A DNA stretch of 64,000 nt from positions 96,001 to 160,000 of the forward strand of contig CAWFQK010000002.1 in assembly GCA_963817955.1 (NCBI GenBank). Direction: 5' to 3'. Shown here in pieces: positions 24,024 to 39,644 of the stretch (positions are counted from its first letter, which is position 1; every line of letters starts with the position of its first letter). The notes beneath the pieces are model-generated. The model saw nothing but the letters and a program-made list of their open reading frames with translations, made no database searches and was not told the origin of the DNA. This DNA comes from an uncultured Gemmatimonadaceae bacterium (GTDB taxonomy: Bacteria > Gemmatimonadota > Gemmatimonadetes > Gemmatimonadales > Gemmatimonadaceae). The position numbers were made by a program, and so were the translations under genes.

Positions 24024-26453
24024 TCAGCTCCGCAGTATGATCAGCGGATCGACCCGAGTTGCGCGAAAAGCCGGTCTTGCGCAGGCAACCACGACGACGG
24101 CGACCAGAACGGCTTCAGCGCTCAGCAGAGACATCCAGCCCAGGTCTTGCACCCCAAAGACTGACGATCTCATGGCGCGAACCACCAACAGGGAGAGAAG
24201 GAGACCGAGCGTCGATCCCACAATCAGCATGACGATCCCTTCGCGAAGGATCGGTCGGGCGACCTCTGTCACGTTTGCACCAAGTGCTCGACGGAGAGCG
24301 AGCTCGTGTCCTCGTTCGACCAATGCAGTGCTGACGATGCCAAAGAGGCCAATGGCGGCGAGGAGCAGCTCGAATGCTCCGCACGCCGCGAGAACCCACC
24401 CAAGAAACGCCTGCCTGCTTTGGAACAACGCGAGGTCGTCACCGACCCGATGGATCGGAGTGAATTTCGCGGTGGGCGCGACTGAGCGCAGCTCGCGTGC
24501 GATGGCCAACTCCGCGTTTCGAGAAGCCAGCGACCGCACCAGCAAGTGCGAGCCAGGCGCCGCAGCGTCGGAGCTCAGCACCATTAAAGATCCATTGTTC
24601 TGGATCTGCGGATCGTTCGGCGACAGGGTGAAAGGTCGGATCACGCCGATGATCGTGACTTGCGTCGCTGACGGCCTCGAACCACCCAGGCTGATGCGAT
24701 GGCCAACGATCTGACCACCCGGCAATAAGCGCCTTGCCAATACCTCATCGACGACAGCCACTTGACCGTCAGGATCTCCAGGGGCGAATGCTCGTCCCGC
24801 GACGAATTGCGTCCTGAGTACCGACGTCAGTTGCGGCGACACCACGTCATAGTTCGTCTGCGCAATCTCACGACCGGCGATGCCGATACGCTCGCCCGCT
24901 AGCCGCGTGCTGAACTGGAACCCGGCGGCTTGTGTCGTGGGCGACGATGCAACGGCGCTCAGCATTTGCTGATTCTGTTCGAGCGTTGCTTGGTAGGTTT
25001 GCTCGTCGGCCTGCGAAACAGGCCCAGTCGGAAGCTCGCGGCGCCCAACGGGCGGCCGCGCAACCCTTCCGAACTGATTCACCGTGGTCTGATACAGGCC
25101 CTCGAAATCCACGGCGAGGTGCGGGTCGCTTGCGTGCCGTAGGGAGCCAAAGACCGCGGAGGTTGCTACGACGAACGCCAATGAGATCGCCAGCTCGACG
25201 GCAAGGAATGCCCGATACCCAAACTTGCGTCTGCCGATCACGGTACTGCTCAAGTCCCGCAGTGGCTCGACAAGGTCGACCCGAGATCCCAATATTGCCG
25301 GCACAGCGCCGATGAAGGCGACGCTCGCGACGACGAGGGCGAGCCCGAACCCGAAGACTCGTGCGCTCAACGTCGGCTGACGAAAGAAGATCTGAAGCGC
25401 GGCCGGCATCCGGTCGTTGATGAGCCAAACAGACCAGACCGTGAACAGGTACGCCAGGAGCGTCCCGATTGCGACGATGATCATCCATTCGACGAGCAGC
25501 GTCATGATCAGCTGAGGTCGCGTCGCACCGAGCGAAGCACGCAGGGCCAACTCTCCGCGCCTGCGCGTCGCACGGACAATACTGAGACTGGCAAGGTTGC
25601 AGCACGCGAGCAGGACGACGATTGCCGACGCGATCGTGAGAAGGACCTGAGGGACCGCTGCGCCGTTCTGTGCGGCTTGTAGCGGAACGACAAGCGCCTC
25701 GGGACGTCGATCCACCGTCGGACGAACGCGACCTGCCAACCCCACCAGGCGCGCTCCGAGCACGTTCAAGTTTGCTTGCAGTTGCGGTCGACTGAGTCCA
25801 GGCCGAACGCGAACGTATCCCCTCACCGACTCGGTGCTATCGAGCGGCGCGTTCCGGCGGTGCAGTACCCAGGCTTCGGCCGCGACAGCGCCGGCGAACG
25901 CGCGCGGCGCGACACCGATGACGTGAAAAAGCGTGTCATTCAGGCGAAGCACGCAGCCGCCGGGGGTTGGACGTGTTTCACACTCCCGTTGCCAGAGACT
26001 CTCACCGATCACAATGGCATTGTCGGCGGCCGATGAATCGGCGGATACGAAGAACCGACCCGACCGCGGCGTGACACCCAGGACTTGAAAGAAATTGACT
26101 CCGACGTGTGCCAGCTCGGCGAGCCGTTGTTCCGTTTGCGTCTGCAGCAGTCGCGGGCCTTCCCACGCTTCGAAGGCAAAGCCGGATACCCCAGGAGTAC
26201 CGTCAACCAAGGACTGCAGCACTTCGGGTGCGACAACGAGTCCATGCTGACGATGGTCGACAAATGCTATCGTGTACAGATCGCGGGGCTGCGCGAACGG
26301 CGCTCGTGGATGAAGCACCGAATCGAGAACCGCGTACATCGTTCCGCTAATGGCAAGCGCAAGCCCAAGCGTGAGTGCAGCGGCGATGGCAAAGACCGGA
26401 TGCCGCCTCAAGTGCCGGGCGGCGAGTCGGAGCTCTCTTGCAAGACCGCGCAT
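24024..26453 (-). CDS. ADOP/MacB-like duplicated ABC permease
   Basis: 809 aa; [39 protein letters not shown] and [10 protein letters not shown]; no adjacent cognate ATPase. Confidence 0.9.
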
Positions 26454-26501
26454 GCCATTCTCCCACGAGAGAATTGTTAATTGTGCGCACCGATGCCGCC
26501 A

Positions 26502-26598
26502 TCGGAACTAATACATAGGACCACACTCATCGTCGGACATATTGGCCCTTGCGCTGACCCCCCAATTTCGGAACTAATATATAGGACTACGATCATCG
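26502..26598. repeat. 31-bp direct repeat pair, 66-bp period
   Basis: TCGGAACTAATACATAGGACCACACTCATCG (26502) and TCGGAACTAATATATAGGACTACGATCATCG (26568). Confidence 0.75.
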
Positions 26599-26609
26599 CA
26601 CAACGCGCG

Positions 26610-27706
26610 GCTGCCGAGACGGGATCGATCGCGGCAAGATCGAATGCGATCGTGGCGAGACGGGATCGATCGTGGCGAGCTGGAAGTCGATCGTGGCGAG
26701 AGGGGATCGATCGTGGCGAGAGGGAATGCGAATGTGGCGAGATGGAATGCGAGCGTGGCGAGACGGGATTCGATCGTGTCGAGATGGGATATCGGGTGAG
26801 ATGGAATGCGATCGTGTCGAGATGGGATTCGATCGTGTCGAGATGGGATCCTAACGCGGCGAGATGGCATCGCAACGCGTCAAGCAGGGATCGTCGCGCG
26901 CCAAGATCGGATCGCAACGCGCCAAGCAGGGATCGTCGCCTGCTCAGACGGAATCCCAACAGATCAAGCAAGGATCGTTGCGCGTCGAGACGGAATCGCA
27001 ACGGATCAAGCAGGGATCGTTGCGCGTCGAGACGGAATCGTAACGCGGCGAGCAAGGATCCCAGCGCGGTGAGCCAGGATCCTCGCGTGCCGAGCAGGCA
27101 TCGCAACTTGCCGAGGAGGGATGCGATCGCGTCGAGATCGCATCGCATCGCCGCGAGACGGCTCTCTTGCGTGCAGAGACGGCACCCCAACTCGCCGAGA
27201 CACAATCGGAGCGCATCGAGCTGAGCATCCCAACTCGTCGAGACACAATCGGAGCGCGGCGAGACGGCACTCCAACTCGTCGAGACACAATCGGAGCGCG
27301 GCGAGACGGCACTCCAACTCGTCGAGACACAATCGGAGCGCGGCGAGACGGCACTCCAACTCGTCGAGACACAATCGGAGCGCGGCGAGACGGCACTCCG
27401 GCGCGTCGAGCTGGAATCCGAACTCGCCGAGACGCAATCGGAGTGCGGCGAGAGAGCACTCCAACTCGTCGAGCTGGGATCGTAACTCGTCGAGCGGGCA
27501 CCCCAACGCCTTGAGACGGGATCCCAACGCCTCGAGCTGCCACGCCACCTCGCTGAGGCGGCCCCCCAACTCTCCGAGACGACACCTCACCTCGCTGAGG
27601 CGGCACCCCAACTCTCTGAGACGACACCCCAATTCTCCGAGACGATATCGCAACTCCTCAAGACCACAGCGCAACTCCCCAAGACCACACCGCAACCGCT
27701 CGAGGC
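26610..27706. repeat. Degenerate 21-bp-period tandem array (~50 units) including 4 x 42 bp perfect repeat
   Basis: GAG/AAG anchor recurs about every 21 nt; exact 42-mer at 27231, 27273, 27315 and 27357; minus strand reads L-x-x-L-x-x-x heptads. Confidence 0.9.
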
Positions 27707-27791
27707 GGATGTTCCCGTTTTTCGACCCCGGCGCGTCGGGCGCCCATCGGGGGGCAGGTCCATTTCGGCGCCCCGTTGGCCGGAAGGCCAC

Positions 27792-28175
27792 ATGAAATAC
27801 AACGAAGGCAGTAGGCTGGAAGCGCTCCGCCGCATCGACGACGCGACTGCTCGCCGCGGCGGCGGCGATGGGCGAGGCCGCGGCGCGCCACGTGGCGGTG
27901 TTCACGGCCAACGGGCTCCCGGCGGATTTCATCGCGCGGTTGGAGGCGTCCGCGCAGGCGCTTCAGACCGCCATTGACGGGCGAGCGGCGCAAACCGGGG
28001 TCCGAAGCGGGGCGACGGCATCCCTGACGTCAGCATCTGCGCTCACGCGCGCGCGGCACAAGCGGACGCCACCACGCAGGACACTACGCAAGGCACGACG
28101 CAGGGCACGACGGCGGCGCCAGCAACGCCGCCTGCAGCATCACCCCCTCCAGCACCGCAGTTGCCGGCGGTGTAA
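27792..28175 (+). pseudogene. Collapsed helical hypothetical protein next to the array
   Basis: GGAAGG RBS; MKYNEGSRLEALRR, then LLAAAAAMGEAAARHVAVFTANGLPADFIARLEA, then ADATTQDTTQG...PQLPAV* in shifting frames; hairpin at 28210-28241. Confidence 0.55.
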
Positions 28176-28243
28176 CACGCCGCACCGGTAGTTCACACTC
28201 CGCAGTAGACGCGAACGGCCGCCCGAGGGCAGCCGTTCGCGTT

Positions 28244-28324
28244 CGAAAGTGGCGGGTCGATGACATCGGGCGTTTCATGATCTTCATTGGCCCAATCAGC
28301 TCCATCTTCGACATCTGCACCTTC
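28244..28324 (+). pseudogene. ~80-bp fragment of Mg2+ P-type ATPase (MgtA-like)
   Basis: RKWRVDDIGRFMIFIGPISSIFDICTF matches the recalled MgtA segment RFMxxxGPxSSIFD. Confidence 0.65.
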
Positions 28325-28458
28325 TCGCCGCGCGTGCATCACGCTCGCTTTGCGCGCCGCCATCCGATCGAAGCCTCCGCAGGTCCACTCGACTGCCGCG
28401 ATTCGACCGGTGGTGGAGCGACGAGCATTCGCCGCTGCACGGCGTGGTACGTTTCGCC

Positions 28459-39582: not shown

Positions 39583-39644
39583 GAGACACGAGACACGAGA
39601 CACGAGACACGAGACACGAGACAGGGACACGGGACACGGGACAC
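39583..39644. repeat. 7-bp tandem repeat
   Basis: GAGACAC x5, GAGACA, GGGACAC x3 in a divergent intergenic region. Confidence 0.9.

Follow-up and report, generated by a model that had tools for sequence, protein, structure and literature searches.

A 21-nucleotide-periodic array in a Gemmatimonadaceae genome as a candidate leader of a multicopy gene cassette

What is an array of some fifty 21-nucleotide (nt) units doing just upstream of a gene in a soil bacterium of the family Gemmatimonadaceae? The array lies at positions 26611-27702 of a 64,000-nt stretch of DNA (hereafter the window) from contig CAWFQK010000002.1 of a 4.53-megabase assembly (G000, here the own genome), and the gene follows at 27792 on the plus strand. 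The original prediction, made from the letters of the window, left two readings side by side: a hypervariable coiled-coil gene on the minus strand, or a non-coding DNA or RNA array acting with the gene at 27792. Having compared the locus with its paralogs and with related loci in other genomes, we favour, by a modest balance of probability, a non-coding, transcribed, cis-acting leader array that forms part of a conserved cassette. The sections of the argument below take up the array itself, the cassette, its recurrence in relatives, its RNA motif and its transcription, together with the readings that compete with this one.

The array in the window comprises 51 units of 21 nt abutting head to tail, and when the sequence is printed in 21-nt rows a CGAGA core is present in each row while the remaining positions drift. 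Rows of period 21, 42 and 63 from Tandem Repeats Finder (TRF) overlap across 26615-27696. The fraction of positions that match the array itself is 0.58 at lag 21, 0.63 at lag 42 and 0.52 at lag 63, compared with a background of 0.23-0.28 at lags of 7, 14, 20, 22, 28 and 35; since the lag-21 signal stands far above background and lag 7 is at background, the period is real and has no 7-nt sub-period. Profile-chained segmentation gave 45 unit spacings of 21 nt, three of 20 nt and one each of 18 and 22 nt (a repeat segmentation run of the window array split them 44/4/1/1), and the 5-6 phase slips cluster at 26658-26799 and 27198-27220. The earlier description of about 50 degenerate units with gradually drifting sequence, whose register slips at about 27220 and below 26800, therefore holds. 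So does the remark that the array is unlike clustered regularly interspaced short palindromic repeats (CRISPR), as the CRISPR layout of 23-50-nt repeats and unique spacers of similar length is absent from the window, where the units abut with no spacers between them. The "4 x 42 bp perfect expansion" that had been described was right in kind and too high in number: a recent, perfect 42-nt repeat occupies 27241-27408 (plus strand), with three exact 42-mers at 27241, 27283 and 27325 and half of a fourth (about 147 identical bases), the rest of the fourth copy having diverged; TRF scores the 42-nt block at 5.6 copies with 92% matches. Folding of the window array gave z-scores of -0.87 for the plus strand and -5.04 for the minus strand. 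Three soil-metagenome DNA runs yielded contig pieces of just 70-345 nt, several of which came from paralogous cassettes, so that paralogy confounds any unit-number polymorphism among them.

Is this array an element in its own right? When window positions 26480-27790 were used as a query against the own assembly, 28 matches were returned, of which eight are colinear over nearly the full query at 72-91% identity and about ten more match just its first ~200 nt. The genome contains about 19 paralogous cassettes of about 1.7 kilobases (kb), in which a promoter-like box is followed by an array of 1.1-1.5 kb, a conserved spacer of about 85 nt holding a pseudoknot-like motif, a Shine-Dalgarno sequence, a gene for a protein of about 250 residues, and a hairpin. 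Homology with the paralogs spans 26533 to about 28244 in the window. The "undescribed repeat system" suggested at the outset is accordingly recast as one part of a promoter-array-pseudoknot-gene cassette, and not as something that stands alone. At its upstream end, the low-GC 5′ box has 22 own-genome matches at 84-100% identity over up to 146 nt, and it was absent from 8/8 same-genus genomes searched, which makes it private to this genome. As judged from these box matches, the window copy (26533-26612, plus strand) is truncated, the first ~70 nt of the 146-nt box being gone, and its -10-like portion is partly duplicated at 26502-26538 on the same strand, where the match to box positions 106-142 is 84%. 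Behind the box, 21-nt periodicity runs over 0.3-1.8 kb in 20 of 21 extracted loci, and the number of array units differs between paralogs by steps of 21, 42, 63 or 84 nt. The 3′ end is marked by a terminal GC-rich hairpin (28211-28240, plus strand) with a 14-base-pair (bp) stem in intact copies and no T-run, past which the copies diverge. Considered as a possible insertion sequence or MITE, the 1.7-kb cassette has defined ends, and neither inverted termini nor a transposase open reading frame (ORF) was seen in it.

The state of the genes varies greatly from copy to copy. Among 14 cassette genes that were read from the start codon, three are intact (252-257 residues) and one nearly so, and the remainder carry ACG starts, frameshifts or deletions. 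In the window, comparison with paralogs delimits a gene remnant at 27792-28175 (plus strand), belonging to a family of basic helical proteins of about 250 residues. Relative to its closest intact paralog, this gene has lost 272 nt and 127 nt and gained a 24-nt in-frame insertion, and a stop falls within the frame-shifted middle segment; by this alignment the gene at 27792 is a pseudogene in the window copy. Paralog genes begin with MKY.. and have GGAGG or GGAAGG 5-6 nt before the ATG, and in the window a small hairpin immediately ahead of the ATG (27777-27790, plus strand) contains GGAAGG (27782-27787) as its Shine-Dalgarno sequence. Array phase follows the condition of the gene: spacing is strict in cassettes with an intact gene (41/41 and 49/49 spacings of 21), and decayed copies slip, with 5-6 slips in the window and 11 in C4_765636. 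At one locus, G000:C1:440973-442472 (L015), two family paralogs stand in tandem behind a single box with a short array and knot, the second gene having no array of its own.

Two other repeats lie near cassettes. A dispersed repeat of about 100 nt (...CACAACTCACGACTCAC...GACCGGCG...) adjoins several of them on either side, being found downstream of G000:C4:244194 and C4:587529 and upstream of C2:997319, C4:660453 and C4:1205762, and it may be relevant to the way in which the cassettes were copied. The second, the heptanucleotide microsatellite (GGGACAC)n, occurs at window positions 39625-39644 and in more than 100 other places in the own genome (214 matches at up to one mismatch vs 0 for a reversed control). 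It is often situated just upstream of a cassette 5′ box, a (CGTGTCT)n run precedes another family locus, and (GGGACAC)n accounts for some weak lag-21 signals.

Does the pairing of array and gene extend beyond these copies? A lag-21 scan of the own genome identified 76 regions, 43 of them strong, and 21 of the 43 strong arrays adjoin a family gene or remnant, 20 of these lying upstream. For 29 loci from 29 other genomes of the Gemmatimonadaceae, 21-nt periodicity was found upstream of the gene in 18/28, within the gene body in 1/29 and downstream in 1/25. For 15 further loci, mostly from a second family, an unbiased scan of periods from 6 to 65 gave 21, 42 or 63 as the best upstream period in 14/15; downstream of the same loci the best period was 21 in 1/15 and never 42 or 63. 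The unit consensus sequences differ completely between loci. These scans indicate that the period and position of the array are kept across two families and that the sequence of the unit is not. The proposal that the array is non-coding and works together with the gene next to it at 27792 is strengthened by this recurrence, in ~19 own cassettes and two families, and the search that had been suggested for similar arrays beside homologs of the 27792 protein succeeded (upstream at 18/28 and 14/15 loci), so that an association with a gene family, the absence of which had been considered as an outcome, is present. In draft genomes of relatives, many family genes begin within a few bases of a contig end (for example G149:C44:4-747 and G149:C15:44-748; also G047:C76:351-1097 and G162:C824:7-615), as if arrays were breaking the short-read assemblies, and the linkage counts may therefore be underestimates. 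We also considered whether the other 21-periodic arrays of the own genome could be counted as cassettes, and rejected this because they have neither box nor knot and form a different class. The 17 strong arrays that have no family gene and are not box cassettes have other unit sequences and sit between ordinary genes, as at G000 C4:1663744-1664628, C5:41503-42368, C4:30267-31006, C7:126273-127196, C4:492087-492826 and C3:118220-119043.

The protein encoded by intact copies belongs to a large group without a name. An intact family protein had no sequence match in Pfam, PHROG or PDB, and Foldseek found none at E<=0.001 in PDB or BFVD; a wide search with VIA-align brought up generic helical bundles only, LemA scoring highest (Z 9.6). 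Its neighbours in the ESM Atlas are unnamed "hypothetical protein" clusters, and a word-indexed protein search recovered own-genome copies only. With a profile built from 11 members, 4,727 cluster representatives were matched at E<=0.001 among 1.84 billion (942 of them at E<=1e-30), mostly 230-260 residues long and aligning from residue 1, with "hypothetical protein" as the recorded name and one record from Gemmatimonadaceae. Within the window's family, the gene is present in 46/301 genomes (a tally that includes the unpublished genome G270) and 16/77 genera, often in several copies. A phylum-wide sample, whose tally includes the unpublished genome G353, gave 57/301 genomes: 6/69 in the window's family, 50/125 in a second family of the same order and 0/106 in ten others. 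By these profile matches, the gene belongs to a large unnamed family found in two families of one Gemmatimonadota order. In the second family, at loci L084-L098 and among the matches of the phylum-wide sample, many matches contain exactly one in-frame TGA inside the profile match. The AlphaFold model is all-helical, with a predicted local distance difference test score (pLDDT) of 85.6, two helices of ~55 residues and a disordered tail rich in Pro and Thr. The folded core is basic in 11/11 members (isoelectric point 9.7-11.7, net charge +5 to +22). A helix of ~55 residues is, by our arithmetic, ~80 Å long, roughly the length of 21 bp of DNA.

What lies between the array and the gene? Here we found a motif with the topology of an H-type pseudoknot, placed between the array and the ribosome site. 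A hairpin, S1, has a GC-rich stem of 6-14 bp and variable sequence and is followed by a U-rich linker of 9-14 nt; its loop, 9-13 nt long with consensus GGRYGCS, is complementary to a segment 9-14 nt past the hairpin, with which it would pair. Set beside an intrinsic-terminator attenuator, which has a GC-rich stem, a short loop and a T-run, S1 offers the stem and a U-rich stretch after it, but its loop would pair downstream and no terminator comes up in a consensus scan of the window copy. A pattern search of the 115 nt before the start codon, requiring at least 6 bp in both stems, was run blind and matched 26/37 loci, where 20 shuffles averaged 3.6 and never exceeded 6. Covariation was assessed in 20 sequences picked by this pattern search, so that percent pairing is partly by construction: 8/12 pairs change on both sides, with 31 compensatory cells vs 10.3 in shuffles (0 of 500), and when the pseudoknot partners are slid by 1-3 columns they pair at just 27-60%. 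A covariance model of S1 and the conserved arms, run over the whole own genome, matched 14 sites at E<=1; every one belongs to a cassette, and about half are untrained. In 150 genomes of the family it gave 13 matches, 10 of which lie 20-70 nt upstream of a family gene (6 untrained), the other 3 being unassigned, and at the 15 further loci, mostly of the second family, there were weak matches only (E 0.11-0.92). The window holds a weakened copy, located by pattern search at 27726-27773 (plus strand; S1 6 bp, S2 7 bp), which matches the covariance model at C2:123730-123773 with 31.7 bits. Matches to Rfam were at chance level only and far below gathering scores, with none on the array or knot (window at E<=1; 17 related loci at E<=0.1). 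We propose the covarying pseudoknot as a new candidate RNA motif that is absent from Rfam.

Where would transcription of the cassette begin? In the window, the 5′ box contains a promoter-like pair, CTGACC (26554-26559) and TATATA (26578-26583), separated by 18 nt and followed by GG; in all box cassettes this motif directly precedes the array. Other family loci have TTGACA or TTGCGC and then TA.A..AG.GG just upstream of the array; inspected by eye, the promoter-like motif stands just upstream of the array start at 6/6 own loci and 7/14 loci of relatives. At two unrelated sites in the own genome the same -10-like word occurs behind a TTGACA or TTGAGA -35 at standard spacing. Between the end of an array and the start codon there are just 40-90 nt, too few for a second promoter ahead of the pseudoknot. 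Given the motif upstream and the lack of room downstream, we infer that transcription runs through the array and makes it the gene's leader (in the window 26611-27702, plus strand). Transcription would then start at the box and the array would be an mRNA leader; this is the weakest link of the anatomy.

Several observations weigh against a transcribed leader array, and we set them out together. A consensus scan of 26300-28400 finds neither a sigma-70 promoter nor a canonical terminator, and the promoter call in the window consists of a 4-of-6/4-of-6 match with an 18-nt spacer, plus conservation. No RNA run containing the locus was found. The arrays share no sequence motif, and the 18 that were folded have no consistent RNA structure (mean z -1.08 sense and -0.89 antisense, the sense strand being the less structured in 9/18), so that nothing points to the feature that would be bound. 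A structured repeat RNA was itself considered and dropped, as neither strand is consistently folded across these arrays. Stop-free frames are commoner in antisense (11/26 arrays) than in sense (5/26). As regards linkage, 10/28 relatives' loci are without an array at the threshold used; 22/43 strong arrays of the own genome are more than 1.5 kb from any family gene, and 17 of the 22 are not box cassettes and lack box motif and knot; and one own full-length paralog, G000:C5:176601-177932 (L081), has its array downstream. The gene-less strong arrays mean that the 21-nt period may partly reflect a mutational habit of the lineage. Lastly, most cassettes in the own genome are decayed, with just 3/14 genes intact, and a break after ~17 codons is common to the window and two other copies. 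We read this break as the same first deletion, which implies that the cassette kept multiplying after its gene had died. The downstream 21-periodic stretch of L081 is crossed by a 234-residue open frame on the minus strand.

These points bring us to a rival reading, in which the array is a slippage-prone minisatellite, functionless or selfish, that a long leader tolerates and that is copied along with the cassette, with a period that comes from mutational bias of the lineage. It would agree with the decay of most copies and the multiplication of those with dead genes, with the presence in the genome of 22 further strong arrays of this period and of over 200 matches to the 7-nt microsatellite, and with a 5′ box that is private to it. 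It would also agree with the way the arrays change, by steps of 21, 42, 63 or 84 nt between paralogs and at about 2.5 times the rate of the gene: in the pair C4_1542898/C4_246241, the array has 83 differences over 933 nt (8.9%) vs 25 over 690 nt (3.6%) in the cassette gene. We nevertheless judge this explanation unlikely. Position and period upstream of the gene are kept across two families while gene bodies and downstream flanks lack the period, copies with an intact gene hold strict phase where dead ones slip, and bias alone leaves unexplained why arrays abut the pseudoknot within 40-90 nt of the start codon.

A further alternative, which we consider quite improbable, is that the array acts as duplex DNA, offering phased sites two helical turns apart, upstream of the real promoter of the gene, that are bound cooperatively on one face of the helix. 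A period of exactly 21 bp that stays in phase despite drifting sequence is what such sites would require, and the basic core of the protein, the lack of strand-specific RNA structure and the weak base skews (AT skew >0 in 19/27 arrays, GC skew <0 in 19/27) point the same way. However, the sole conserved promoter-like motif precedes the array instead of standing between it and the gene, the 40-90 nt before the start codon are filled by the covarying, RNA-type pseudoknot and the Shine-Dalgarno sequence, and the units show no dyad symmetry or shared site.

Could the array instead be coding? The minus-strand LxxLxxx pattern with many Cys and Arg that had been noticed in the window is real: when the minus frame is phased to the units, Leu occupies position "a" in 49/50 of them and "d" in 30/50, and the 350 residues include 22 Cys and 49 Arg, with a Cys share of 6.3% vs 0.7% in the neighbouring gene. 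Also as noticed, this frame has no clear start codon or ribosome-binding site, none having been found. Each frame of the window array contains 1-6 stops, none being open end to end. The "a" Leu codons are CTC (40), CTT (8) and CTG (1). The left neighbour, an 809-residue duplicated permease of MacB/FtsX type (24024-26453, minus strand; Pfam MacB_PCD, FtsX) whose start codon is 80 nt from the start of the truncated box, has Leu codons CTG (36), CTC (32), CTT (18) and TTG (16). Information content summed by codon position of the Leu frame is 7.5/5.5/6.5 bits, with the third position above the second. The fixed choice of CTC and CTT, taken with this codon-position profile, indicates constraint on the nucleotides GAG rather than on leucine. 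The check that had been proposed, whether conservation follows codon structure, thus came out negative, third positions being more conserved than second.

Divergence between paralogs tells the same about the array and serves as a control with the gene. In seven paralog pairs and six frames, array substitutions are evenly spread over codon positions (for example 4/5/4, 16/14/19 and 13/17/20), and gaps of 1, 2 and 4 nt occur alongside those of 21, 42, 63 and 84 nt. For the pair C4_1542898/C4_246241, the stop-free minus frame of the array gives 13/17/20, unlike the gene of the same pair, where position 3 is affected in 15/20 single-difference codons (15 synonymous vs 5 non-synonymous); in a more distant pair, 57/88 single-difference codons of the cassette gene differ at position 3. 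By these counts the downstream gene is under clear purifying selection and the array is without a coding signature. Among 26 arrays from the own genome and relatives, a stop-free sense frame is found in 5, a stop-free antisense frame in 11, and 11 are closed in all six frames; the heptad translations are unrelated from array to array. Third-position divergence, an uninterrupted frame with a start codon and ribosome-binding site, and conservation structured by codon were looked for as marks of a coiled-coil gene, and none was found. An in-frame N-terminal extension of the cassette gene through the array was also tried and rejected, as open frames reach only 88-165 residues upstream and the sense frame is open in the 5/26 arrays just mentioned.

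The hypervariable coiled-coil gene of the original prediction, taken as a minus-strand gene for a Leu-zipper-like protein broken here by sequencing errors or recent decay, is therefore very improbable: the LxxLxxx pattern with its 49/50 Leu, the 11/26 stop-free antisense arrays, a minus frame open across the whole array in the intact-gene cassette C4_1542898 and weak sub-cut-off Pfam matches (Crescentin rod, 29 bits against a cut-off of 100; DUF7310, 30 against 40) are outweighed by the flat distribution of substitutions, unlike that of the control gene, by third positions more conserved than second, CTG in 1/49 Leu codons and the high Cys share, by an ORF whose beginning would fall within the family gene on the opposite strand and have neither start codon nor ribosome site, and by frame slips, 1- and 2-nt indels between paralogs, 11/26 arrays closed in all six frames and unrelated translations. 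The Leu-heptad reading of the minus strand appears to be a by-product of the repeat nucleotides.

If the array is a non-coding leader, how might it work? What is conserved is period, phase, position and orientation, not sequence, and the simplest mechanism for this would be the side-by-side assembly of a protein with a fixed footprint. The period-locked array could be a binding platform on which a protein with a footprint of ~21 nt assembles, a proposal that we make tentatively, as the likeliest mechanism, and that may well prove wrong. The natural candidate for such a platform protein is the basic, rod-like product of the cassette. Its assembly, together with the pseudoknot, would control read-through or translation of the cassette gene, and unit number would change by slippage in steps of 21 or 42 nt, leaving the sequence to drift while phase is kept. 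A stronger form of the leader-array proposal, which we regard as rather unlikely, is a self-addressed nucleoprotein system, in which the product would polymerise head to tail on its own leader RNA or DNA with one protomer or dimer per unit. Each array would then be a private ruler that gauges and nucleates a filament and co-evolves with its own protein, and through the pseudoknot the growth of this filament would be linked to read-through or translation.

Does any described system look like this? Operator, iteron and partition-centromere arrays, such as parC/ParR of plasmid R1, sopC/SopB of F and the heptads of the omega repressor, bind the protein of their own gene. These arrays have 4-12 units and occur on plasmids or phages; they work in the form of duplex DNA, at the promoter or close to it, and are bound through known DNA-binding folds. 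The cassettes resemble them in having fixed-period direct repeats upstream of a gene for a small protein that could bind cooperatively and regulate its own gene, with a repeat sequence peculiar to each system; they differ in running to 20-70 units, in being present many times on the chromosome with a promoter-like motif ahead of the array, and in a protein that lacks any recognisable DNA-binding domain. Sponge RNAs of the Csr/Rsm type (CsrB, RsmZ) each have a small gene to themselves, and their GGA motifs sit in hairpin loops at irregular spacing. The likeness is that of a non-coding RNA made of many repeated protein-binding units, whereas the cassette arrays have no shared motif, no consistent structure and no Rfam match, keep a strict period and are fused to the mRNA. 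A CsrA-type reading of GGA was tried for the window array and rejected, as GGA occurs in just part of this one array. Coding heptad minisatellites share the 21-nt period, the heptad-like translations and slippage, and are set apart by the lack of a coding signature in any frame here. Judged by sequence features, operator, iteron, centromere and Csr/Rsm systems each have single features in common with the cassettes and appear to differ from them in copy number, layout, motif or protein fold.

Searches of Rfam, Pfam and full-text literature yielded no matching description of period-locked arrays tied to a gene family. The closest published analogue found is the TAACTGA heptamer, whose direct repeats precede start codons in Beggiatoaceae, Cyanobacteria and some Bacteroidetes, with up to 43 copies in some genomes (PMC4679880). 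Both kinds of repeat share an upstream location and a suspected post-transcriptional role, and the TAACTGA system uses one fixed 7-nt word common to all its loci, a few nt from the start codons of unrelated genes (PMC4679880). The cassette arrays, in contrast, have a 21-nt unit that is private to the locus, reach 50-70 units, are linked to one protein family and have a pseudoknot motif before the start codon.

For the annotation of these genomes, the consequence is that Leu/Arg/Cys heptad ORFs of this kind should not be annotated as genes, and the cassettes, if the reading as a leader array is true, would explain the recurrent heptad-like "phantom ORFs" and the contig breaks seen in them. It would also mean that at least two Gemmatimonadota families devote up to ~1% of the genome to cassettes in which period is kept over sequence, and that gene control or nucleoprotein assembly there reads spacing rather than sequence, at a family of thousands of members. 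Should the self-addressed form hold, it would amount to a cis-templated protein assembly not described in bacteria.

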